Source: Erysipelotrichaceae bacterium
GTDB lineage: Bacteria; Bacillota_I; Bacilli_A; Erysipelotrichales; Erysipelotrichaceae
Assembly: GCA_045599505.1 (NCBI GenBank)
Contig: JAZRWC010000067.1
Location: 1-60,545, forward strand
DNA: 60,545 nucleotides
Direction: 5' to 3'
The notes under the pieces are model-generated. The model saw nothing but the letters and a program-made list of their open reading frames with translations, had not been told where the DNA came from and made no database searches. Position numbers and translations under genes: made by a program. Positions 3,796 through 55,320 of the stretch are shown piece by piece; the stretch's first letter is position 1, and each line of letters opens with the position of its first letter.

Positions 3796-3813
3796 TTTGA
3801 ACAATTGTTCAAA
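3796..3813. promoter_or_regulatory. ArsR/SmtB-type operator, perfect 18-bp palindrome TTTGAACAATTGTTCAAA
   Basis: Perfect inverted repeat with a TGAACA-N2-TGTTCA core, as in CzrA/CadC 12-2-12 operators. It lies just downstream of the -10 of the operon promoter. Confidence 0.7.
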
Positions 3814-3826
3814 TGTTTACAATATC

Positions 3827-3854
3827 ATTATACCTACTATTCTTCCCATGTCAA
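3827..3854 (-). promoter_or_regulatory. SigA-type promoter of the HMA-ATPase-ArsR operon
   Basis: On the minus strand: TTGACA (3854-3849), 16-nt spacer, TATAAT (3832-3827). Confidence 0.6.
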
Positions 3855-3973
3855 CAATTTACAAAAGAAAGTATCAAATATATGCTATAAAATAACATGA
3901 TTTTGTGTAATACTATTTATTCTTATAAACCGATTATATTATACAACCGCTGTCCCTATGTTCTTTACCCACC

Positions 3974-4006
3974 AAAAAAGAATTGCTCAACCGTGAACAA
4001 TTCTTT
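3974..4006 (-). terminator. orphan intrinsic terminator
   Basis: Stem AAAGAATTG/CAATTCTTT with a 12-nt loop, followed on the minus strand by a U-run. No intact gene lies upstream of it. Confidence 0.45.
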
Positions 4007-4830
4007 ACAACTTTAAGATTATAACCCCTAATCGATTAAAGTGTCTACTTTTTGCTTATCCAGTTCATTAACACGTCCAGATAACTGGGTACATATTAAC
4101 CTGAATATCATTTTTGTACTTTTGGTGTTCAATACATTGAAATCATATGGTTCAATTTTGTTATTAAAATATATATTAATTAGTTTCTAATTTTAGATTT
4201 CTTTACTAAATAACAAATTAGAAATAGACTCAACAAGCAGTAAATCAAGTGTTGATAATGTGACCAAACAACTAATTGTAAATTAAACAAAAACATCACA
4301 AGCAATCTATTGAATAAACCGATTGTTAGGTATCGTTTCCAAAGAAATTCTTTTCCCTTCATTAAAGATAGTATAAAGTCCAATGATGCACTAAACAAAA
4401 TAAGAGGGAAAGAATATTTTAATACGAGCAATGAAAATGATATAAAGTATTCAAAAAATTTGAGGGAAATATATTTATTTTAATATCCATACAGATTCCA
4501 AGATAATCTCATTTGATTATAATAATTTATTTCTACTACCAAATATTCATTTGAAGAAAATATACTACCTATTGCTGGGAAGGTTACTCCCCATGACACT
4601 TTTGCATTCGCAGGTCTTGATGAAGAATCAATAGCACGCATATTATTATACTATTTTATATTACTTTTAAGTCTTTAGTTTAGCAATATAAGTTAATTTT
4701 TCTGAAGATGAATATTCTATTGCTTAAGAACACCCTATTATTTATATATGTTCAGAATCTCAAAACAATTAATTCAAGTAGGAAAGATAATATTTCCTCA
4801 TTTTTTGAAGTATATATCACTCAAATTTCT

Positions 4831-5388
4831 CTAAAGCTTGTCCTTCAAATACTCAAATACCATATCTACTGGTAAGCCCATAATTGTGTAGTAGTTACCT
4901 TCAATCTTACGGATATATTTACCAGCCCAACCTTGAATAGCGTAGCCTCCAGCTTTGTCATATGGCTCTGCAGTTTCAATATATTCATCGATATCTTTGT
5001 CTGAAATATCATTGAAATATACTACAGCAGTATCTGCTACGTTATAAATTTCATCCTTGCTAATAAAGCAGATTCCAGTAATAACTTCGTGCGTTTTACC
5101 TCTTAACATCTGCATCATTTCTTTAGCTTCTTTTTTACTATGAGGTTTTCCTAATATCTTACCATCACAAGCTACTACAGTATCACTGCCTAATACCATT
5201 GCCTCAGGGTTATTGTTAAATACCGCCATGGCTTTTTGTTTAGCTAAAGATTTTACGATCTCTTGGTTAGATAAGTCGTGATTAACAATCTCATCAACAT
5301 CGCTTACCTCAACCACAAAATCCTTAGTAACATATCCCAATAGTTCTTTTCTTCTAGGAGAACCACTAGCTAAAATAATTTTTCTCAT
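4831..5388 (-). CDS. maf: Maf-like nucleoside triphosphate pyrophosphatase (septum formation protein)
   Basis: MRKIILASGSPRRKELL...YAIQG, the typical Maf signature. Confidence 0.9.
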   Translation of the reverse strand: MRKIILASGSPRRKELLGYVTKDFVVEVSDVDEIVNHDLSNQEIVKSLAKQKAMAVFNNNPEAMVLGSDTVVACDGKILGKPHSKKEAKEMMQMLRGKTHEVITGICFISKDEIYNVADTAVVYFNDISDKDIDEYIETAEPYDKAGGYAIQGWAGKYIRKIEGNYYTIMGLPVDMVFEYLKDKL

Positions 5389-5391
5389 CTA

Positions 5392-7371
5392 TTAATCCTC
5401 TTTTGATTTTAATTCTAAAATCATATCTCTTAATTGAGCAGCTCTTTCAAAGTCTAATACTCTTGCAGCCTCTCTCATTTCCTTTTCTAAGCCACTAATT
5501 AGCTTATTGATATCTTCCTTAGACTTCTTACCCATCTTCTTACCCATGTACTTAACAGCCATTTCATGAGTCTCCTTAGAATGGATGGCATCTCTAATTT
5601 CCTTTTTAATAGTCTTAGGAGTAATGCCATTTTCCTTGTTATAAGCCATCTGGATAGCTCTTCTTCTTTCAGTTTCGCTTATAGCCTTCTTCATTGATTC
5701 AGTAATAGTATCACCATACATAATTACTGTACCATTCTCATTTCTGGCTGCTCTACCGATAGTCTGAATCAAGCTTCTCTCACTTCTTAAGAAACCTTCC
5801 TTATCAGCATCTAAAATAGCTACTAAGGATACTTCAGGAATATCCAAACCTTCTCTTAATAAGTTGATACCTACTAATACATCATACTTACCTTTTCTTA
5901 AATCTCTAATGATTTCAGTTCTTTCTAAGGTCTTTGTTTCATGATGTAAGTAAGCAACCTTATACATGCTATTTTCTAAGAACTTTGTTAGTTCTTCAGC
6001 CATCTTTACAGTTAAAGTAGTAATTAATACTCTTTCACCTTTTTCGATTCTAATATCAATTTCGTGTCTTAAATCATCAATCTGGCCTTTTGTTGGTCTA
6101 ACTTCAACCATTGGATCTAATAGTCCAGTAGGGCGAATAATCTGTTGAACAACTTCACCATGAGTCTGCTCTAATTCATAGTCACCAGGAGTGGCACTAA
6201 CACAGATAATCTGATTGATTAAACTTTCAAACTCATCAAATTTTAATGGCCTATTATCTAAAGCACTAGGCAATCTAAAGCCATATTCAACTAAAGTCTG
6301 CTTTCTGCTTCTATCACCATTGTACATACCTCTTACCTGTGGTAAAGATACATGTGATTCATCGACAATTAATAAATAATCCTTAGGGAAATAGTCAAAT
6401 AGTGTAAATGATCTACTTCCTGGTTCTCTAAACTCTAACTGCCTAGAGTAGTTTTCAATACCACTGCATACACCAAACTCTCTTAAAGCTTCTAAGTCGT
6501 ATGTGCATCTTTGTTGTAAACGTTCCTTTTCTAAAGGTTTGCCATTATCTTCAAAGTACTTCAAACGCTCTTTTAATTCAGCTTCGATATTATCGCAAGC
6601 CTTTAATATATCATCCTTGTTTTTAGCGTAACCACTTGCAGGAAAGATATTATACATTGTATAAACCTGTAGAGTTTTGTTTGTTAGAGGATCTACTTCA
6701 CTTATACGATCGATAACATCATCGAATAACTCAACTCTTAACACAAAGGCATCACTATAACCTACAGAGATATCGATGACATCTCCTCTTACTCTGAATG
6801 TTCCTCTTTTCTGTTCCATATCGTTTCTAACAAACTGTCTATCAACCAACATTCTTAATAATTGGTTTCTAGTCATCGGTTCGTTTACTTTGATAGTAAA
6901 GAATAAATCACGGTATTGATCAGGATCACTTGAAGCGTAAATGCAGGCAACAGAAGCAACGATAATAGTATCGGGATGTTCAAGTACCGCATTATATGCC
7001 GCAAGTCTTAACATATCTAACTCATCATTAATCATTGAGTTCTTTTCAATATATGTATCAGTCTTTGGTAAATAAGCTTCTGGCTGGTAATAATCGAAGT
7101 TTGAAACGAAGTATTCGACATGATTGTGAGGGAATAACTCTTTAAGCTCAGTATATAATTGACCAGCTAATGTCTTATTATGAACAAACACTAATGTTGG
7201 TTTATTGATCTTTTGAATAACATTGGCAACAGTAAAAGTCTTACCTGTACCAGTAGCACCTAGTAAGACCTGATATTTCTTATTAGCTTTTAAACCTTCA
7301 ACTAACTGTTCTATAGCTAATGGTTGATCTCCTTTGGGAGTATATTCACTAACTAACTGAAATTCACTCAT
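5392..7371 (-). CDS. uvrB: excinuclease ABC subunit B
   Basis: GATGTGKT Walker A, helicase motifs, and the C-terminal UVR domain [15 protein letters not shown]. Confidence 0.97.
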
Positions 7372-13225: not shown

Positions 13226-13302
13226 AATTTTTCTCTCCTTTGTAATATTAGATTATATCCTCATTATAAAAATATATTCGATGTACTTCCATCAAAATAC
13301 CC

Positions 13303-13330
13303 AAAAATAAAACCGTTAATAAATAACGGC
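13303..13330 (-). terminator. intrinsic terminator
   Basis: CCGTTA/TAACGG stem followed by a U-run on the minus strand, directly after the stop at 13332. Confidence 0.5.
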
Positions 13331-13331
13331 T

Positions 13332-13988
13332 TTACACTTCTCTTTTACTTCTATTAATTCCAATTAACAATACACTTATCGCTGAAATTGATAGAGAGAT
13401 AAGTGTTGTCCTATCAATTTTCACTGCTATTCCATAAAAGACTATCATAAATAAACAAATTGCGACGATAAAGCAGAATTTACTGCTAGCGCTCATTTTA
13501 GTAGTTTCACTTTTTTTAGCGATTTCTTCAAATTTACTACTAGTAACAACTATAGCTAATACTAACGCAAATAAAGATATTCCTACTCCTGCTCCAGCGA
13601 TAAACTGTAATACTGGTGACCTCAATTCTAAACCTGTAACGATCGCTGATACTAATAAACCTGTAAAACTAACAATACATACTACATTTACTTTTTTTCT
13701 AAAGGATTCCTTTGCTGCTGTAGTGTAATCAGCAACTAACAAAGCTGTTTCTTTAACATTTGGTTCCATTATCTTTTCTTTTACTTCGCCAGCCAATATA
13801 TCTTTAAGCTCCACACCATAGAACTCGGCAAGTTCAATAAGAATAGAAATATCTGGCAAGTTATTGCCTGTTTCCCAACGTGACACTGTCCTATTAGTTG
13901 TATTTAGCTTTTGAGCTAGTTGCTCTTGAGTAAAACCCTTTTCCTTTCTTAGAGTTCTTAATGTTTCGCCAATTCTTTCCTGATTCAT
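13332..13988 (-). CDS. XRE-family HTH transcriptional regulator with C-terminal transmembrane domain
   Basis: N-terminal LRKEKGFTQEQLAQKLNTTNRTVSRWETG, followed by 3-4 hydrophobic helices. Confidence 0.8.
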   Translation of the reverse strand: MNQERIGETLRTLRKEKGFTQEQLAQKLNTTNRTVSRWETGNNLPDISILIELAEFYGVELKDILAGEVKEKIMEPNVKETALLVADYTTAAKESFRKKVNVVCIVSFTGLLVSAIVTGLELRSPVLQFIAGAGVGISLFALVLAIVVTSSKFEEIAKKSETTKMSASSKFCFIVAICLFMIVFYGIAVKIDRTTLISLSISAISVLLIGINRSKREV

Positions 13989-33880: not shown

Positions 33881-34495
33881 TTATTTATTGTTAGCACTCA
33901 CCTTTTTGTAGGCATATATAAAGATACTTACAGCCATAATAGTCAGGTAAACACTTAAAAGTGGATACAATAGCATAGAGTTACTAAAGCGATATCCATA
34001 ATCAACTATCATTTCCTTAATCATCACAACTAGTAATATGACAAGTACAATTACATCATAATACTTTGGAATTTTAGCTACTAGTATATAAATGAAATTA
34101 GCAAACACAAAAGCCGTGATTAGTTTGATAGTCATGTCAGTAGCAGTATCTAATATAGAATCAGGTAATAATTCTAATGGAATCACTGTCGTAATTAACA
34201 ATGGGGTAACTTGCGCACCAACAAAGAAGGCTCCTAACCATTTATTAATCTCTTGTTTTTCAGATGACAATATAAATGAGCAACCTACTACCGATAGAAT
34301 AGGATAATATCCTTTAAAGCATTGACAAAAAAAGCCAAGTGTATTATCAATCTTTACACTGTACTCATCAATAATATGCCATCCATTATTTGCTGACAAA
34401 AATTCCATACCCATAAACAGGCCCAATAGCAGAAATGGTAGCATATATTTATATCCACGAATATCATTATCACTGTACATTCTATCTTCTTTCAT
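33881..34495 (-). CDS. hypothetical integral membrane protein
   Basis: About six hydrophobic helices and a good AAGGAG RBS. No family recognised. Confidence 0.5.
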   Translation of the reverse strand: MKEDRMYSDNDIRGYKYMLPFLLLGLFMGMEFLSANNGWHIIDEYSVKIDNTLGFFCQCFKGYYPILSVVGCSFILSSEKQEINKWLGAFFVGAQVTPLLITTVIPLELLPDSILDTATDMTIKLITAFVFANFIYILVAKIPKYYDVIVLVILLVVMIKEMIVDYGYRFSNSMLLYPLLSVYLTIMAVSIFIYAYKKVSANNK

Positions 34496-34556
34496 CTACA
34501 TCTCCTTAATACTAATCTCATTATATGTTGGATTAAATATTTTTGCGAGTTTTTTT

Positions 34557-34590
34557 AAAAAAAAGATGTTCAACGCATATTGAACATCTT
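34557..34590 (-). terminator. intrinsic terminator after the MATE gene
   Basis: 11-bp stem AAGATGTTCAA/TTGAACATCTT followed by a U8 run on the minus strand. Confidence 0.8.
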
Positions 34591-34595
34591 ATCAT

Positions 34596-35942
34596 TTATC
34601 TTAAATGAGCTTTCTTTGGCCATTTAGCAAACATGTAATAGAACAACGCTAATAAGCCAGCAGTTGTATAACCGATAACTCCAGAGAAGTAGATAATCTT
34701 AATATCATTGATCATTTTTAAGCCAAAGAATACGAAGCAATATCTAGCTAAACATTGAGTCAGGATACCATTGATCATTGGAATTCTAACATTTCCTGCT
34801 GCCCTGAAAGCACCATGGAATGTATGTGACCATCCAACAAAGATATAGCTGAATACCATAATTCTAGTCATTGTTACACCATGTCTAACAATTTCTGGAT
34901 CCTTATTGATCATCATAACTAATGGTGGTGCTGCAACGAAGATTAATGAGCAACCAAGTACACCGATAATAGTAACTAATAATAAGCTCTTCATTAATAT
35001 ATCCTTAGCTCTATCGTATAGCTTAGCACCATAACATTGAGACACCATGTTTGTTGTTACACTTGAAAATGCCATCAAAGGAATTTGGGCAAAGTTAGCG
35101 ATTTTTTCCGCCGCACCAATACCAGAAATAGCTTCATTAGGGAATAAGTTGATGTATGATTGAATCATCATACTGCTTAAAGCAATACACATATTACCGA
35201 TACCAGCAGGAATACCCAAAGCACAAACTCTCTTTACCATTCCAAAGTCAAACTCCATGTGGAAGACATCAAATTCTACAACATTCTTCATCTTCATCAA
35301 CAATCTAACAACGAATATATCAACAATTAATTGAGAAATAATTGTAGCTAAAGCTGTTGCGTATGCACCTAGATGCATAACTCTAACAAATAAGACACCT
35401 AATGTCATATTGATAGCACAAGATAATATTAAGTAGTATAGAGGATGCTTAGCATCACCAAAGCTTCTTAAAATATAGAATACTACCTGGTATGTTAATA
35501 CAGCTGCATGTCCTAAACTGTAAACTCTTAAATATACTAAGGCTGTTGGATAGATATCTGGCTGAATATTAGTAACACCCATTAAAAATGGTATTAATAA
35601 TTCTGAAATTATAGTTAATAATAAACCTCCACCAATAGAGAACATGATACAACTATCTACTGAGATTTTTAATTTTTTCTTATCACCGCTACCAAAGCAA
35701 TTTCCTACAACTACACCTGCTCCAGCTGCAATACCAGAAAACATAAATCCATAGATATTACAAATTGAGTTGCAGGCGCTTACTGCACTTAAGGCTAACT
35801 TGCTTACGTAGTTACCAACAATAACGGTGTTTGTTAAATGATAAACAGAATTAAATACGTTGGCTAAAATAATAGGCCATACAAATGTGATGATTTGTTT
35901 CCAAACATTTCCTTCTGTAAAGGTTATATTATCTTTACTCAT
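34596..35942 (-). CDS. MATE family efflux transporter
   Basis: 448 aa with 12 TM segments and an N-terminus typical of MATE/NorM-like proteins (WKQIITFVWPIILANVFNSVY). Confidence 0.8.
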   Translation of the reverse strand: MSKDNITFTEGNVWKQIITFVWPIILANVFNSVYHLTNTVIVGNYVSKLALSAVSACNSICNIYGFMFSGIAAGAGVVVGNCFGSGDKKKLKISVDSCIMFSIGGGLLLTIISELLIPFLMGVTNIQPDIYPTALVYLRVYSLGHAAVLTYQVVFYILRSFGDAKHPLYYLILSCAINMTLGVLFVRVMHLGAYATALATIISQLIVDIFVVRLLMKMKNVVEFDVFHMEFDFGMVKRVCALGIPAGIGNMCIALSSMMIQSYINLFPNEAISGIGAAEKIANFAQIPLMAFSSVTTNMVSQCYGAKLYDRAKDILMKSLLLVTIIGVLGCSLIFVAAPPLVMMINKDPEIVRHGVTMTRIMVFSYIFVGWSHTFHGAFRAAGNVRIPMINGILTQCLARYCFVFFGLKMINDIKIIYFSGVIGYTTAGLLALFYYMFAKWPKKAHLR

Positions 35943-36032
35943 ATTCTATTCCCCTTTTTCTTAATACTAATTCTATCACTTATACAAATTATTTACTTAA
36001 ATTTAACACTCAATAAAATACATTTTTACAAG

Positions 36033-36062
36033 AGAAAAGGCTCCACCATTTCTGGCAGAGCC
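36033..36062 (-). terminator. intrinsic terminator of the large ncRNA
   Basis: On the minus strand: GGCUCUGCCA-GAAA-UGGUGGAGCC (10-bp stem including two G-U pairs), followed by UUUUCUCUUG. Confidence 0.8.
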
Positions 36063-36792
36063 TCATAAATTGTGCATGTCATCCTTCGGCAATCCGCGCC
36101 TCCAGAATATATTCTTTCAGTTTTCCCGACCTTACGGCCAGTTCAGTTTTTCAGTTTTTAGCACTTCTCTTTACCACAGCTCAGATTACTCCAAACTGCT
36201 GCTGTTTCCCCAGTTCGCCTTTCAGCTCACCAAGGCTTCCATGCTCAGTCCAAACAACCTCGCACTTCGCACTTACCTCCAAGGCTAACGCCCCTTCAGC
36301 CGTCCCTTTCTTCCACCATTTTGCGACGATGAACCGCAGTAGCAAGCTCTCGCTTACCACAGGAACTGAGCAACTCTTTCAAGCCACCTACTAGCCTTTC
36401 GACCAGCTTCCCTAGCTACTCGCCTTATTTCATGCTTCTCACCAGATCTTCAACTCTCATCCAGGTTCTCCCTGAACTTCGTCTGACGACTATTGCTTTC
36501 GTTACCTACTTGCCGAAGCGAACCTAACTCGTCTCGCTCCCTGAGCCACCCTTTCGAGCAACCCATCACCTGTTTCCTCAAGGCTCTCACCCTGCCTCCC
36601 CAGGCAACGCCCTAGCCAATCCTTGACTAAGCCTACGACCCATTGCAGACCGTTTCCCTTGGGCCATCCAACCTTACGGCTACCAAGCCCGTGCCCTTAC
36701 TATCCACCAGCAATCTTGCGACCAACCAACAAAATTCTAGGCACCTTCACCAACGCTTTCGCGCCTTCTCAACTGGCCTTTCGACCGGCCGA
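36033..36792 (-). ncRNA. large (about 760 nt) highly structured non-coding RNA, family unassigned (ornate OLE/ROOL/GOLLD-class candidate or new)
   Basis: A GC-rich island in an AT-rich genome. No minus-strand ORF of 60 aa or more. It has its own near-consensus promoter and an intrinsic terminator. At least nine GNRA-capped hairpins, one UUCG hairpin and a GAAA-capped terminator are present. The transcript strand is strongly G-rich and C-poor. Confidence 0.75.
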
Positions 36793-36798
36793 GACAAT

Positions 36799-36827
36799 AT
36801 ATTACCACGGCTATATATATGTGTCAA
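36799..36827 (-). promoter_or_regulatory. SigA-type promoter of the large ncRNA
   Basis: On the minus strand: TTGACA (36827-36822), 17-nt spacer, TAATAT (36804-36799), preceded by an A/T-tract UP-like region. The predicted TSS is near 36790. Confidence 0.75.
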
Positions 36828-36862
36828 CAACTTTTTTATATTTTTCAAAAAATTTTTTATAA

Positions 36863-38098
36863 TTATTTTTCTTTCTTTTTAAATAGGTATTCGTCAACCT
36901 TCTTAACAATTACTTCAGGTATTTCTCTTTCAACTGGGAAACAATATGAATTAACTACTCTTTCAGTAAATGTTTTAACAAACTCTGTTGTCTTTAATAG
37001 GTTTAAGCTATCCATGAAGAAGAATTGATCATATCTATCATGGATGTAGGCCATTCCATTACCACCGAATCTGGCAAAGCTTACAGCAGGAATTCCCTTA
37101 TCAGCAAATGGGATGCAATCTGATGAATAGATATCATGTTTTACAGTAATCTGGAAACCAACTTCCTTTGAAAGATAATTTATGTAGTGCATTAATCCTT
37201 CAGGTCCTGTTACCATAGCTATATCATTTCCTAGTACTGGTCCAGCTACATCGACATTTATATTGAAGATAATCTTTTCTAATTCTGATTCGTGTTTTGC
37301 TACATAGTCTTTAGAACCTAGTAGTCCTCTCTCTTCAGAGCCACACCAGATGAAACGTAATGTTCTATCGGGTTTATTTTCTATAAAGTAATTATATAAT
37401 TCTGTTAAGATTACACTTCCTGCTCCATTATCGTAAACACCTTTTGAATATTCTACAGAATCAAAATGAGCTGTTAATGTGATTACTTCTTCAGGATACT
37501 TTTCCCCTTTAATATCGCTTATGACGTTGCAAGAGTTGATCTTATAAGTATCCTGTTTTGTCTTAATTGTCACTTTCTCAGGGTTTTCTAAAACTAACGC
37601 CATAGCATCTTCAATCTTCATATTAACCCCAGGAATATTACCCTTTTCTCTTAATATTCCTCTTAATTCACGATGTGATAGGTCGTTTTTATCATTTAAT
37701 TGTCCATTGAATGTGATAAAGCCTTTAGCTCCAGCTTTAATAAGCTTTTCAAACATCTTTACCCCTAAACCATTAACCATAACTATCTTGTCTTTACAAT
37801 TTTGTAAGCCAACCGCGTTATCACTATTTAGATAATAGAACTCCGCTGTAATACCTTCTTCAGGAGTGTTTGCACATTGATAGAAAGTTGAAACCTCATA
37901 TGACTTCTTATCTGTTGTTAATTCACTAACTGTAACATCTTGCCAATCTACTTCAAACTCTTCAATTACTGCTTTTCCACCAGCTTTTTCAACAGCCTGT
38001 TTTAGGCTATTTGCAGCTTGTCTTTCTTGAGGGCTACCACTGATTCTTGTATATCCAATCTCTTCTAACAATGCCCACTGTCTTTTGCTATCAATCAT
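36863..38098 (-). CDS. M28 family metallopeptidase (aminopeptidase)
   Basis: Metal-ligand pattern TAHFDS, YDNGAGS, CGSEERGLLGS and a distal HD. PA-like insert. Confidence 0.7.
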   Translation of the reverse strand: MIDSKRQWALLEEIGYTRISGSPQERQAANSLKQAVEKAGGKAVIEEFEVDWQDVTVSELTTDKKSYEVSTFYQCANTPEEGITAEFYYLNSDNAVGLQNCKDKIVMVNGLGVKMFEKLIKAGAKGFITFNGQLNDKNDLSHRELRGILREKGNIPGVNMKIEDAMALVLENPEKVTIKTKQDTYKINSCNVISDIKGEKYPEEVITLTAHFDSVEYSKGVYDNGAGSVILTELYNYFIENKPDRTLRFIWCGSEERGLLGSKDYVAKHESELEKIIFNINVDVAGPVLGNDIAMVTGPEGLMHYINYLSKEVGFQITVKHDIYSSDCIPFADKGIPAVSFARFGGNGMAYIHDRYDQFFFMDSLNLLKTTEFVKTFTERVVNSYCFPVEREIPEVIVKKVDEYLFKKKEK

Positions 38099-52112: not shown

Positions 52113-54043
52113 TTAATGTTAGCTCCATCTTCTACTTCTGATAAGCTAACTACTTCTAACTTACCATTTTCGTCTTCTGCAGATAAGATCATACCTTGAG
52201 ATTCAACACCTCTTAAAGTAACAGGCTTTAAGTTTGCGATGAAGGCAATCTTCTTACCAACTAACTGTTCTGGCTTATACCATTTAGCGATACCACTAAC
52301 AATCTGTCTAGTGTCAGTTCCACACTTAATCTTAAATACTAACAACTTATCAGCCTTTGGATGCTTGTCACATTCTAAGACTGTACCAACTCTAATATCT
52401 AACTTAGCGAAATCATCGATAGATACTTCATCCTTGTATTCCATCTTCTTTACAACTGGCTTTTTGCTTTCTAAGTATTCATTGATTTCTACTAACTTCT
52501 TAGCAGCATCAATTCTTGCGAATAATACTGTTGGAGTTTCAGTAACCTTATTATTAGTTTCGTAGTTACCCCAAGTTAATACTGAGTCATATGAAGTTGC
52601 CTTTGTATTGATCTGTGAATATACATTCTGTGCTGTTTCAGGCATGAATGGTTCCATTAATACTGTCGCAATTCTGATACCTTCAAATAAGTTATATAAA
52701 ACTGTATTTAATCTTGGATTATTAGCTTCATCCTTAGCTAATGACCATGGAGTAGTTTCATCAATGTACTTGTTACATCTTCTTAATAAATCTAAGATAG
52801 CTTCAATAGCGTCAGCTACTCTTAAATCATCCATCTTCTTATCTACCTTCTTAACAGTATCTAAGGCGAATGTTACTAATTCATCATCTAATGGTTCCTT
52901 ACAAGTAGGTTCTGTTAATGTACCACCGAAATACTTATTAGTCATTGCGATAGTTCTATTTACTAAGTTACCATATACGTTAGCTAAGTCAGAGTTAATT
53001 CTTTCAATAACTAAGTCCCAAGTAATTGAACCATCCTGAGAAAATGGCATTTCATGTAATGCGAAATATCTAACAGCGTCAACACCAAAATACTTTACTA
53101 AGTCATCAGCGTAGATTGCGTTACCTCTTGATTTAGAAATCTTATCTTCGCCAACTAGCATCCAAGGATGACCGAATACCTGCTTAGGTAAAGGTTCACC
53201 TAAAGCTAATAACATGATTGGCCAATAAATAGTATGGAATCTGATGATATCCTTACCGATTAAGTGTAAATCTGCTGGCCAGTACTTATTGTACATTTCA
53301 TCATGATTGCCATCACAATCATATCCAATACCAGTGATATAGTTGCTTAATGCATCAATCCAAACATAAACAACATGCTTGTCATCGAAATCTACAGGTA
53401 CGCCCCACTTAAATGAAGTTCTTGATACACATAAATCCTGTAAACCTGGCTATAAGAAGTTATTAATCATTTCATTCTTTCTGCTTTCAGGCTGAATGAA
53501 TTCTGGATGATCTTCGATATAGCCCATTAATTCGTCAGCATACTTGCTCATCTTGAAGAAATATGATTCTTCCTTTTCCTTATGAACAGGTCTACCACAG
53601 TCTGGACAATTTCCATCGACTAATTGAGCTTCTGTCCAGAATGATTCACATGGAGTACAATACCAGCCTTCGTATTCACTCTTATAAATATCTCCTTGGT
53701 TATAAAGCTTCTTGAAAATCTTCTGAACCTGCTTTTCATGATATTCATCAGTAGTTCTAATGAACTTATCATAAGAAGTGTTCATTAAATCCCAGATTTC
53801 TTTAATTGTTCCTGCTTTTTCATCTACATACTGCTTAGGAGTCATTCCAACTTCCTTAGCCTTTTCTTCAATCTTCTGACCATGTTCATCAGAGCCAGTC
53901 TGGAAGAATACATCATATCCTACCATTCTCTTGTATCTAGCGATACTATCAGCCATGATAATTTCATAAGTGTTACCAATATGTGGCTTTGCACTTGCAT
54001 AGGCAATTGCGGTTGTAATGTAATACTTTCCTTTATTTTCCAT
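52109..54043 (-). CDS. metG: methionine--tRNA ligase, one reading frame interrupted by a single in-frame TAG at 53450-53452
   Basis: The track fragments 53450..54043 (HIGH-type KPHIGN, zinc knuckle CTPC...CPDC) and 52109..53296 (KISKS, anticodon domain, C-terminal tRNA-binding domain) are in the same frame. The 150 nt between them translate without stops as [51 protein letters not shown]. That is conserved MetRS sequence. Confidence 0.9.
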
Positions 54044-54061: not shown

Positions 54062-54275
54062 AATAAAAAGGCACCATATTTAAGGACGTCTTAAACGTGG
54101 TACCACCTTAGTTACTTCTCAATACGTTAACGCCGTCATACGTTCTTATCTACATATCGATAAGACTGCTCCAAGACCATGTTCTCAATATACCTCGAAT
54201 ATTTTTCACCAGACAATATCTCTCTTGATTTGCTAATATATTGATACTCTTCTTTTCATCGCTTTACTACTAAAG
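54062..54275 (-). promoter_or_regulatory. T-box riboswitch leader, Met (AUG) specifier, with terminator
   Basis: On the minus strand: AGCGAUGAAAAGAAGAGUA (stem I base), AGAGA, GGUGAAA distal loop, GAAC-AUG-G specifier (AUG at 54180-54178). The T-box sequence AAGGUGGUACCACG lies at 54107-54096. The terminator GGUACCA...UGGUGCC is followed by a U-run. Confidence 0.85.
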
Positions 54276-54350: not shown

Positions 54351-54363
54351 ACTCAAGCAAACA

Positions 54364-54493
54364 TCTTATAAAGAGCGCAGGAGGGACTAGCCCATCGATC
54401 GTGCACCAACCTATTTAGTTAGGTGGTAAAGCTAGTATGATAAGATAACTTTTACTAGATCACCCAAGGTAAAGTTATCTTGGGTGTTTTTTT
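54364..54493 (+). promoter_or_regulatory. SAM-I clan (S-box) riboswitch with terminator/antiterminator expression platform
   Basis: AUCUUAU-AAAGAG-CGCAGGAGGGACUAGCCCAUCGAUCGUGCACCAACC-UAUUUAGUUAGGUGGUAAAGCUAGU-AUGAUAAGAU matches the S-box core (P1, AGAG, GGAGGGA, GCCC, CAACC, GGUG.UAA). The terminator is CACCCAAG...CUUGGGUG followed by U7. AAGAUAACUUUUAC can pair with GUAAAGUUAUCUU as the antiterminator. Confidence 0.8.
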
Positions 54494-54522: not shown

Positions 54523-55320
54523 ATGATTGAAAAAGTTAATCCATGCCATCCAGATAAGGTGGCAGATAGAATTGCTGGAGCTATCGTTGATTTAGCTTAT
54601 ACAAAAAGTGCTAATCCAAAGGTAGCAGTAGAAGTATTATTAGGACATGAAAATTGTCATATTATCGCTGAAACAAGCGAAGAATTCTCTTATGATGAAG
54701 TTAAAAGTTTAGTTACTAGAATTACCGGAGAAGTAAATTTAGATTTACAGGTGGTTAAGCAGGATGAACATTTAGCAGGTAATCAATCTGAAAAAATCAG
54801 ATGTGGTGATAATGGTATCTTTAAGGGAACTGTTTTAACAGAAGAACAGAAGAAGATTTCTTTAGTAGCTAGAGATATTTATAAAAACTTCCCAACTGAT
54901 GGTAAGTACATTGTTGATAATGATCGTATTATTGTTTGCCAATCAAATGGTTCAACTGAAGACATCGCTAAAGTTGAAAGTTTAAAAGATTTCAAAACTG
55001 TAATCATCAACCCATTAGGTGATTGGACTGGTGGTATCAATGTTGACTCTGGTGCAACTAATAGAAAGTTAGGGTCTGACATGGCTGATTCAGTTACTGG
55101 TGGAGGTCTTCATGGAAAAGACTTATCTAAGGCTGATGTTTCTGTTAACATCTACGCTTTCTTAAAAGCACAAGAAACTAATCAGACAGTTTCAATCTGT
55201 TGTGCTATTGGTGATGATACAATTGATGGAAAGCCATATGAAGAAATCGTTGAAGTAGCTAGAGAATTTATTAACTCATTAGGTGGATTTGAAAAGTTCG
55301 CTGAATGGGGCTTGTATTAA
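54523..55320 (+). CDS. miniature S-adenosylmethionine synthetase (MetK)-like protein, 265 aa
   Basis: By-eye alignment to MetK motifs: CHPDKVADRIAGAIVD (EGHPDKIADQISDAVLD), CGDNG (GAGDQG), TDGKYIV (PDAKSQV), INPLGDW..GG..DSGATNRK (INPTGRF..GGP.GDCGLTGRK) and GGGLHGKDLSKAD (GGGAFSGKDPSKVD). It sits behind a SAM riboswitch. Confidence 0.65.
   Translation: MIEKVNPCHPDKVADRIAGAIVDLAYTKSANPKVAVEVLLGHENCHIIAETSEEFSYDEVKSLVTRITGEVNLDLQVVKQDEHLAGNQSEKIRCGDNGIFKGTVLTEEQKKISLVARDIYKNFPTDGKYIVDNDRIIVCQSNGSTEDIAKVESLKDFKTVIINPLGDWTGGINVDSGATNRKLGSDMADSVTGGGLHGKDLSKADVSVNIYAFLKAQETNQTVSICCAIGDDTIDGKPYEEIVEVAREFINSLGGFEKFAEWGLY

Follow-up and report, generated by a model that had tools for sequence, protein, structure and literature searches.

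The 60,545-base window analyzed here is a contig from an uncultured Erysipelotrichia bacterium (JAZRWC010000067.1), and the element in question lies between two of its minus-strand genes, which encode an M28 peptidase (36863-38098) and a MATE protein (34596-35942); Pfam agreed with both assignments as they stood in the initial annotation of this locus. The DNA between them is GC-rich, is bracketed by a promoter and an intrinsic terminator on the minus strand, and very probably holds a genuine gene for a structured noncoding RNA (ncRNA). The fuller reading developed below, in which a highly structured ncRNA of ~760 nt outside the described families is encoded by its own stand-alone gene at 36030-36795 (minus strand) and works by the mechanism proposed in this report, is held as a whole with moderate confidence.

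Composition and transcription signals

The sharp compositional island described in the initial annotation was recovered by computation. The segment 36030-36830 (minus strand) had a G+C content of 52% vs 33.5% for the window, and in successive 200-nt windows the values were 0.48-0.58 over 36100-36800 and 0.24-0.37 in the flanks. When islands were defined by a 300-nt window and a threshold of the genome mean + 0.12, the RNA region was the sole GC island among the 60,545 bases. The plus strand of the island is strongly C-rich and the minus strand G-rich, with an overall RNA composition of 26.6% A, 15.4% C, 36.8% G, and 21.2% U. The initial 200 nt of the transcript contained 40.0% G and 16.5% C (56.5% G+C), in agreement with an earlier count by hand. 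In AT-rich genomes, long intergenic stretches of high G+C content are a recognized mark of structured ncRNAs (PMC6429828).

The promoter noted earlier as near-consensus was also the best site of the region in a consensus scan, with matches at 10/12 positions (36827-36799, minus strand) and an additional TG characteristic of an extended -10 element. The strong intrinsic terminator noted with it, a GAAA-capped stem at 36064-36037, lies ~760 nt downstream and was the only terminator-like site in 35800-37000. Because the promoter and this single same-strand terminator together define it, a transcript of ~760 nt is expected, with a predicted start at ~36795-36790. The coordinates of these elements and of the hairpins discussed below are collected in Table 1.

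The promoter region is itself spanned by a 21-nt tandem repeat of 2.2 copies (36816-36861; unit TATATGTGTCAAMAAMTTTTT on the plus strand), which accounts for an upstream near-copy, TTGAAA, of the -35 hexamer TTGACA. This near-copy might serve as another promoter or act like an UP element. The same A/T tract also contains a plus-strand promoter-like site (TTTATA-17-TATAAT at 36835-36863, 10/12 matches) that is oriented antisense to the M28 peptidase gene and directed into its 3' end.

Predicted hairpins and fold

Hairpins were counted wherever a GNRA loop was closed by at least four consecutive Watson-Crick or G-U pairs. The minus strand of the island contained 12 such hairpins, compared with 1.20 ± 1.04 in 500 dinucleotide shuffles, none of which reached 12 (maximum 5). 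With at least five pairs, 11 were observed vs 0.46 expected. The same uniform scan found no GNRA-capped hairpin on the plus strand. Nine of the ten hairpins listed in the initial annotation were recovered in place. The exception was a C(UUCG)G hairpin at 36519-36512, which has only two closing pairs and whose UUCG lies inside a 7-bp stem in the minimum-energy fold; a scan for UNCG hairpins with at least 4 bp found none in the island.

The density of GNRA hairpins was the highest measured in the analysis. Those with at least 5 bp occurred at 1.45 per 100 nt, vs 0.26 for the 16S and 0.10 for the 23S ribosomal RNA (rRNA) of E. coli, a density ~5-14 times that of rRNA; at the 4-bp limit, the RNA had 1.58 per 100 nt and the remaining minus strand of the window 0.09. 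The folding energy of the minus strand was -271.8 kcal/mol, vs -236.7 ± 8.5 for shuffled sequences (z = -4.1), whereas the plus strand gave z = -0.07. The 5' half folded alone also stood out (z = -4.2, 100 shuffles). In the minimum-energy fold, which comprises ~20 mostly local stem-loops, 12 of them GNRA-capped, pairing involves 61% of the bases, and G-U pairs make up 30% of all pairs. Such pairing explains both the large excess of G over C and a complementary strand that does not fold.

Table 1. Positions of the candidate ncRNA gene, its signals, and its hairpins in the window
Feature	Position	Strand	Remarks
A/T-rich tract 5' of the promoter, possible UP element	36828-36862	-	Almost pure A/T by sequence reading
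Sigma-70-type promoter	36799-36827	-	TTGACA 36827-36822; 17-nt spacer; TAATAT 36804-36799; TG (extended -10) 36807-36806
Body of candidate ncRNA, ~760 nt	36030-36795	-	G+C 52%, G 37%, C 15%
Two-hairpin module, copy 1	36751-36786	-	GGUC-GAAA-GGCC, then GGCGC-GAAA-GCGUU
GCAA-capped hairpin	36711-36724	-	UGGUC-GCAA-GAUUG; hairpin scan
GUAA-capped 30-nt hairpin	36661-36690	-	Inner 5 bp, 3x3 internal loop, outer GGGCU/GGCCC stem
GAGA-capped 6-bp hairpin	36579-36594	-	CAGGGU-GAGA-GCCUUG; hairpin scan; absent from the initial list
GAAA-capped 10-bp hairpin	36542-36565	-	Half of the pairs G-U; fold and hairpin scan
Two-hairpin module, copy 2	36369-36407	-	GCUGGUC-GAAA-GGCUAGU, then GGUGGCUU-GAAA-GAGUUGCU
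GAGA-capped 9-bp hairpin	36339-36360	-	GUGGUAAGC-GAGA-GCUUGCUAC; fold and hairpin scan
GUAA-capped 10-bp hairpin	36176-36199	-	GCAGUUUGGA-GUAA-UCUGAGCUGU; fold and hairpin scan; absent from the initial list
GUAA-capped 6-bp hairpin	36126-36141	-	CUGGCC-GUAA-GGUCGG; hairpin scan
Intrinsic terminator	36028-36064	-	Stem 36064-36037 of 10-12 bp (12 pairs counting G-U), GAAA loop, then UUUUCUCUU

Repeated elements within the RNA

Several hairpins are variants of one another. All five matches to the pattern RGYC-GNAA-GRYY in the 60-kb window fell in the RNA on its minus strand, where 0.22 would be expected. A larger module of 34-36 nt, made of two adjacent GAAA hairpins and defined by the pattern GGUCGAAAGGCYAGU, a short spacer, and GGCNYGAAAGNGUUG, occurred twice (36786-36751 and 36404-36371; 0 expected). 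Relative to copy 1, the second hairpin of copy 2 carries a compensatory change of G-C to U-A and a wobble change of C-G to U-G, and this difference between the copies is the only covariation-like evidence at hand.

The two halves of the RNA could also be aligned with each other. At an offset of ~382 nt the local alignment scored 61, vs 35.6 ± 5.9 for shuffles (shuffle maximum 59), and internal similarity peaked at offsets of ~372-395 nt. Searches within the RNA with nhmmer or blastn recovered only the ~37-nt module (E 0.02-0.2). Consequently, we treat the repeated module as established and an internal duplication of the whole RNA as merely possible.

Repetition of this kind could also serve a decoy or sponge, in which the GNRA hairpins would titrate or organize one RNA-binding protein as CsrB and RsmZ titrate CsrA. 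Five copies of a single 12-nt hairpin type, the recurrence of the two-hairpin module, and the beads-on-a-string layout of ~20 local hairpins all suit such a function. However, no candidate binding protein is encoded nearby, the hairpins vary in stem length and context, and GNRA loops are more often modules for RNA-RNA contacts. A sponge of the CsrA type specifically is argued against by the loops of the minimum-energy fold, since only 1/20 contains GGA. On balance we judge a sponge to be unlikely.

Coding potential

The period-3 spectral power of the island was at the level of shuffled sequences (z = -0.6), compared with z = 14.0 for MATE, 14.0 for M28, and 8.9 for glgB in pieces of equal length. 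The initial annotation had seen no open reading frame on the minus strand, which was slightly overstated, as two with GTG starts are present (59 and 46 amino acids). Neither these nor two long stop-free antisense frames matched Pfam. Translations of the antisense frames had no homologue in an index of 5.8 billion proteins, and in a representative library of 1.84 billion they retrieved only two low-complexity false positives. A coding origin was rejected on the missing codon periodicity and the lack of a protein-family match. A recently degraded gene, the possibility that the initial annotation had held against its own call, is unlikely because the region has no period-3 signal, no Pfam match, and no credible protein homologue.

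The same data bear on the view that the island is not an RNA feature at all, being instead inserted GC-rich DNA, a chimera of the assembly, or degraded coding sequence. The window is apparently the sole recorded contig of its organism, the M28 and MATE proteins each form a single-sequence cluster, and the region is without relatives; these points count in favor of this view. But the hairpin excess and the folding signal are strictly strand-specific, which an artefact of DNA or composition would not produce. In addition to the negative periodicity and protein-family results, the island is precisely delimited by the promoter and terminator, and its flanks continue uninterrupted into syntenic genes. 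This explanation is therefore regarded as extremely unlikely.

Searches against known RNA families

A covariance-model search was the check that had been recommended for this region. Rfam 15 (4227 families), which we take to include OLE, ROOL, GOLLD, HEARO, raiA, RNase P, tmRNA, and group I and II introns, gave no match in the RNA region at gathering scores. With permissive filters and E <= 10, the segment 35900-36950 yielded three sub-threshold matches only (Moco, ctRNA_p42d, and rli47). The best of these, Moco, reached 20.6 bits vs a gathering score of 36 and overlies the terminator hairpin. ARAGORN detected 0 tRNA and no tmRNA in the whole 60.5-kb window. For RNase P, tmRNA, and group II introns, whose hallmarks the first inspection had not found by eye, Rfam gave no match either, and neither did ARAGORN for tmRNA. 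A literature search for a described RNA class with these features found none.

Several specific candidates were tried and rejected. RNase P RNA, SRP RNA, and 6S RNA had no Rfam match at the gathering score or at E <= 10. An origin from rRNA was dismissed, as only chance matches of 10-23 nt to E. coli 16S/23S were found (best E 0.12). The HEARO or IscB omega-RNA, the TnpB omega-RNA, and bridge RNA had no Rfam match, and the flanking reading frames are the M28 peptidase and MATE. An element of the repetitive extragenic palindrome or miniature inverted-repeat transposable element type was rejected, since nhmmer and pattern searches found no second copy in the window and the structure is strand-specific (z -4.1 vs -0.07).

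Elsewhere in the window, 17 kb from the RNA, only a T-box leader (54079-54268, minus strand, 116.6 bits) and a SAM-I riboswitch (54363-54446, plus strand, 49.6 bits) passed gathering scores. They lie back to back in one intergenic region of 480 nt and control the divergent genes at 53450-54043 (minus strand) and 54523-55320 (plus strand).

Searches for homologues

Homologues had likewise been proposed as a check, and none was obtained. The related loci comprised M28-peptidase relatives in species-representative genomes (L001-L010) and, from a search of 5.8 billion proteins, the loci of the best-matching M28 and MATE homologues (L011-L020). Over these 265 kb, nhmmer (E <= 100), the GC-island scan, and a scan of GNRA density revealed no counterpart, and sensitive blastn against 50,697 phage and 72,556 plasmid records gave no match. 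The one GNRA-dense stretch, in L011, was rejected as an unrelated 23-nt tandem repeat. In this nearest relative, positions 13290-13420 (minus strand) hold five tandem units of ~23 nt with the palindromic core GTGCCGAATTTTCGGAAATGAAA, upstream of an AAA_14/DUF4143 ATPase gene, and the units look like an iterated operator or binding-site array.

Large collections were scanned by exact patterns only. For a pseudo-protein approach, stop-free antisense frames were translated, and degenerate back-translated patterns were then scanned; they had no match in IMG/VR or in the JGI metagenomes. Patterns for the two-hairpin module and a second conserved block had no match in IMG/VR, and a relaxed pattern of the two-hairpin module had none in the JGI metagenomes. 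A looser pattern of two spaced RGYC-GNAA hairpins gave two matches in IMG/VR, both discarded as chance matches of high G+C. One of these, on a high-GC viral contig (L021, 1100-1180, minus strand), consists of two tandem copies of GCCGCCGGTCGAAAGGCCGGTGGTTGCTGGTAAG just past a stop codon, which are probably tandem terminator hairpins. Because exact patterns miss homologues below ~90% local identity, the absence of homologues is weak evidence.

Genomic context

The neighborhood is that of a housekeeping chromosome with a gene order common to relatives, and the earlier impression of a context without tRNAs or a prophage was borne out (0 tRNAs in the window, housekeeping neighbors, no phage match). 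The best homologue of the M28 peptidase among 5.8 billion proteins was 67% identical and that of MATE 73%, and the flanking proteins were 62-73% identical in the nearest genomes. An exact look-up of three proteins of the window found them on record nowhere else; the source bacterium is essentially unsampled.

In the nearest genome (GCA_002315205.1), the order is murA-like, MFS, HPr, PGM, M28, aminotransferase, glgB, phosphorylase, pullulanase, UDG, and FolC. The slot of the aminotransferase, between M28 and glgB, is filled in the window by the RNA, MATE, and a membrane protein of 204 amino acids. This is a lineage-specific replacement in an otherwise perfectly syntenic arrangement (window 33881-36862 vs L017 11214-12488). 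In relatives, the MATE orthologue directly follows uvrB-maf with a gap of 20 nt and no leader. In the window, uvrB-maf (4831-7371) is followed instead by ~1 kb of AT-rich DNA (3813-4830) with no open reading frame above 83 amino acids. This AT-rich DNA may be the scar of MATE relocation, although tblastn found no MATE remnant in it. With the aminotransferase slot replaced and MATE moved away from uvrB-maf, the RNA lies at a lineage-specific rearrangement junction, and in relatives it is kept neither with M28 nor with MATE.

The 204-amino-acid protein (33881-34495, minus strand) is predicted to be a multi-pass membrane protein, an orphan gene near an orphan RNA. It had no match in Pfam, NCBIfam, or the sequences of the PDB, and it is unrelated to the soluble protein of 180 amino acids that follows MATE in relatives.

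In another reading, the RNA would belong to the MATE efflux gene as a very large 5' leader acting in cis, which would start at the 36827 promoter and use the terminator at 36064-36037 as a regulated attenuator of read-through. The RNA and MATE lie on the same strand, only 95 nt separate the terminator from the MATE start (35942), and the consensus scan found no promoter site with at least 9/12 matches in between. A relocated MATE would moreover have needed new transcription signals, its orthologues being in the uvrB-maf operon with the 20-nt gap. However, 760 nt is several times the length of any known riboswitch or attenuator leader, no riboswitch model matched (Moco being sub-threshold only), and MATE orthologues elsewhere lack such a leader. 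No antiterminator alternative was identified in a search that was not exhaustive. MATE also has a plausible promoter of its own just before its ribosome-binding site, the extended -10 sequence TGaTAGAAT (35978-35970, minus strand; ~28 nt before the start codon), which the consensus scan missed because it has no -35 match. A leader of this kind is considered improbable.

Alternatively, a structured RNA of foreign or mobile origin could have left a relic at the junction that is still transcribed while decaying or without function; ORF-less group II introns, other ribozymes, and fragments of larger RNA genes are possible sources. The RNA sits exactly at the aminotransferase position of relatives and adjoins the relocated MATE, its G+C content is foreign to the host, no homologue occurs in the related loci, and in size range and abundance of GNRA loops it is reminiscent of group II introns. 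Yet even at E <= 10 no Rfam family matched, be it a group I or II intron, rRNA, RNase P, or any other, similarity to rRNA was limited to the chance E. coli matches of 10-23 nt, and the promoter and terminator are of the host-style consensus. Neither terminal repeats nor an integrase or reverse transcriptase was found near the RNA. Ongoing selection is indicated by the intact hairpins, 11 of them GNRA-capped with at least 5 bp, and this argues against decay. We accordingly give the relic explanation a low probability.

Proposed role of the RNA

Contacts of the A-minor and tetraloop-helix types are classically mediated by GNRA tetraloops. The most likely role of the transcript, a stand-alone RNA that is probably abundant and stable, is a structural or scaffolding one. 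This is also the most economical reading, because A-minor-type contacts hold the OLE, ROOL, and GOLLD assemblies together (PMC12286853). In the proposed mechanism, the RNA would act in trans as an abundant, nuclease-resistant structural RNA and would work as a scaffold, not as a base-pairing regulator. Through its GNRA loops it would engage in A-minor or tetraloop-helix contacts, which might compact the molecule or join copies of it, or the repeated hairpins might be presented to a partner protein. Helices that are G-rich, C-poor, and rich in G-U pairs would fit a constraint at the RNA level under AT-biased mutation pressure in a genome of 33% G+C.

A number of points weigh against this reading. 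The ~760-nt transcript is a prediction from sequence signals. Taken alone, the 3' half exceeds shuffles in folding by only a modest margin (z = -2.3), and most of the architecture amounts to local hairpins strung one after another. The statistical case for an extended internal duplication is only marginal. Long-range helices are unstable between the minimum-energy and centroid structures, so that no global architecture can be asserted. No homologue of the RNA was found in any collection searched, and, given its position at a rearrangement junction, the RNA could be young or transient. Finally, the scaffold or assembly mechanism in particular is drawn by analogy from style alone, and we advance it only tentatively.

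The suggestion in the initial annotation of a large, ornate ncRNA of possibly new class can thus be upheld in part. The RNA is noncoding, strand-specific, and without an Rfam family, whereas the class is not established, the searches described above having retrieved no homologue. A new RNA class is plausible from this single sequence on a single uncultured Erysipelotrichia contig. In the most far-reaching version, the RNA would be the founding member of an undescribed class of large ornate RNAs that is chromosomal, strongly expressed, built of reiterated GNRA-hairpin modules, and independent of OLE, ROOL, and GOLLD, and would either fold or self-assemble into a defined particle by A-minor contacts of its tetraloops or scaffold a membrane-associated ribonucleoprotein with the adjacent orphan membrane protein; this we consider possible but doubtful.

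Comparison with known RNAs

ORF-less group II introns have lengths of 600-900 nt, multiple GNRA tetraloops, and a relatively high G+C content, and in these three respects the RNA resembles them. It differs in having no match to domain V or D1-D4 at E <= 10, in being bracketed by a promoter and a terminator and not by exons, and in the absence of a reverse-transcriptase gene. With CsrB and RsmZ it shares the layout of a long RNA made of many short hairpins with recurring loop sequences. However, its loops are GNRA, with GGA in 1/20, its length is ~760 nt vs ~370 nt for CsrB, and it has no Rfam match to them. The raiA motif or ModT RNA (~200 nt; abundant in Bacillota and Actinomycetota) is likewise a stand-alone structured RNA of Bacillota with no biochemical function assigned. 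The RNA described here is ~4x longer, has no Rfam match, and lacks wide conservation; raiA is reported from more than 2500 species.

ROOL and GOLLD belong to the same size class and share the ornate style of many helices. They measure 580-800+ nt and form RNA-only nanocages, and their genes lie in phages and prophages, in many cases close to tRNA islands (PMC12286853). In contrast, the present RNA lies in a housekeeping chromosome with 0 tRNAs in 60 kb and no phage similarity by blastn or patterns, and neither covariance model matches it. ROOL and GOLLD have hundreds of covarying members, whereas none is known for this RNA. The analogy with ornate RNAs that form multimers is one of resemblance in size and style. 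Cryo-electron microscopy has shown that large bacterial RNAs without assigned function form unexpected RNA-only assemblies (PMC12286853).

OLE (ornate, large, extremophilic; ~600 nt, Bacillota) is similarly a large ncRNA of anaerobic Bacillota, GC-rich for its genome, highly structured, and without an assigned catalytic or regulatory role. In both cases genes for membrane proteins lie immediately downstream, here MATE and the 204-amino-acid multi-pass protein, although the MATE gene beside the RNA arrived by relocation. The OLE covariance model did not match at the gathering score or at E <= 10, and among the neighbors (M28, MATE, and the unclassifiable 204-amino-acid protein) the protein-family searches made none recognizable as oapA, oapB, or oapC. 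Whereas OLE is embedded in an operon, the present RNA has its own promoter and terminator, and it is far denser in GNRA hairpins, with an extreme skew of G over C.

The most fitting description of the RNA is that of a candidate new class among the large ornate bacterial ncRNAs without assigned function. Its value hinges on homologues being found or expression being shown. As an extremely regular molecule, it is an appealing subject for structural studies. To our knowledge, only a handful of bacterial ncRNAs longer than 500 nt have no known function (OLE, ROOL, GOLLD, and a few others), and an unrelated RNA of the OLE, ROOL, and GOLLD size class would widen this very small set.

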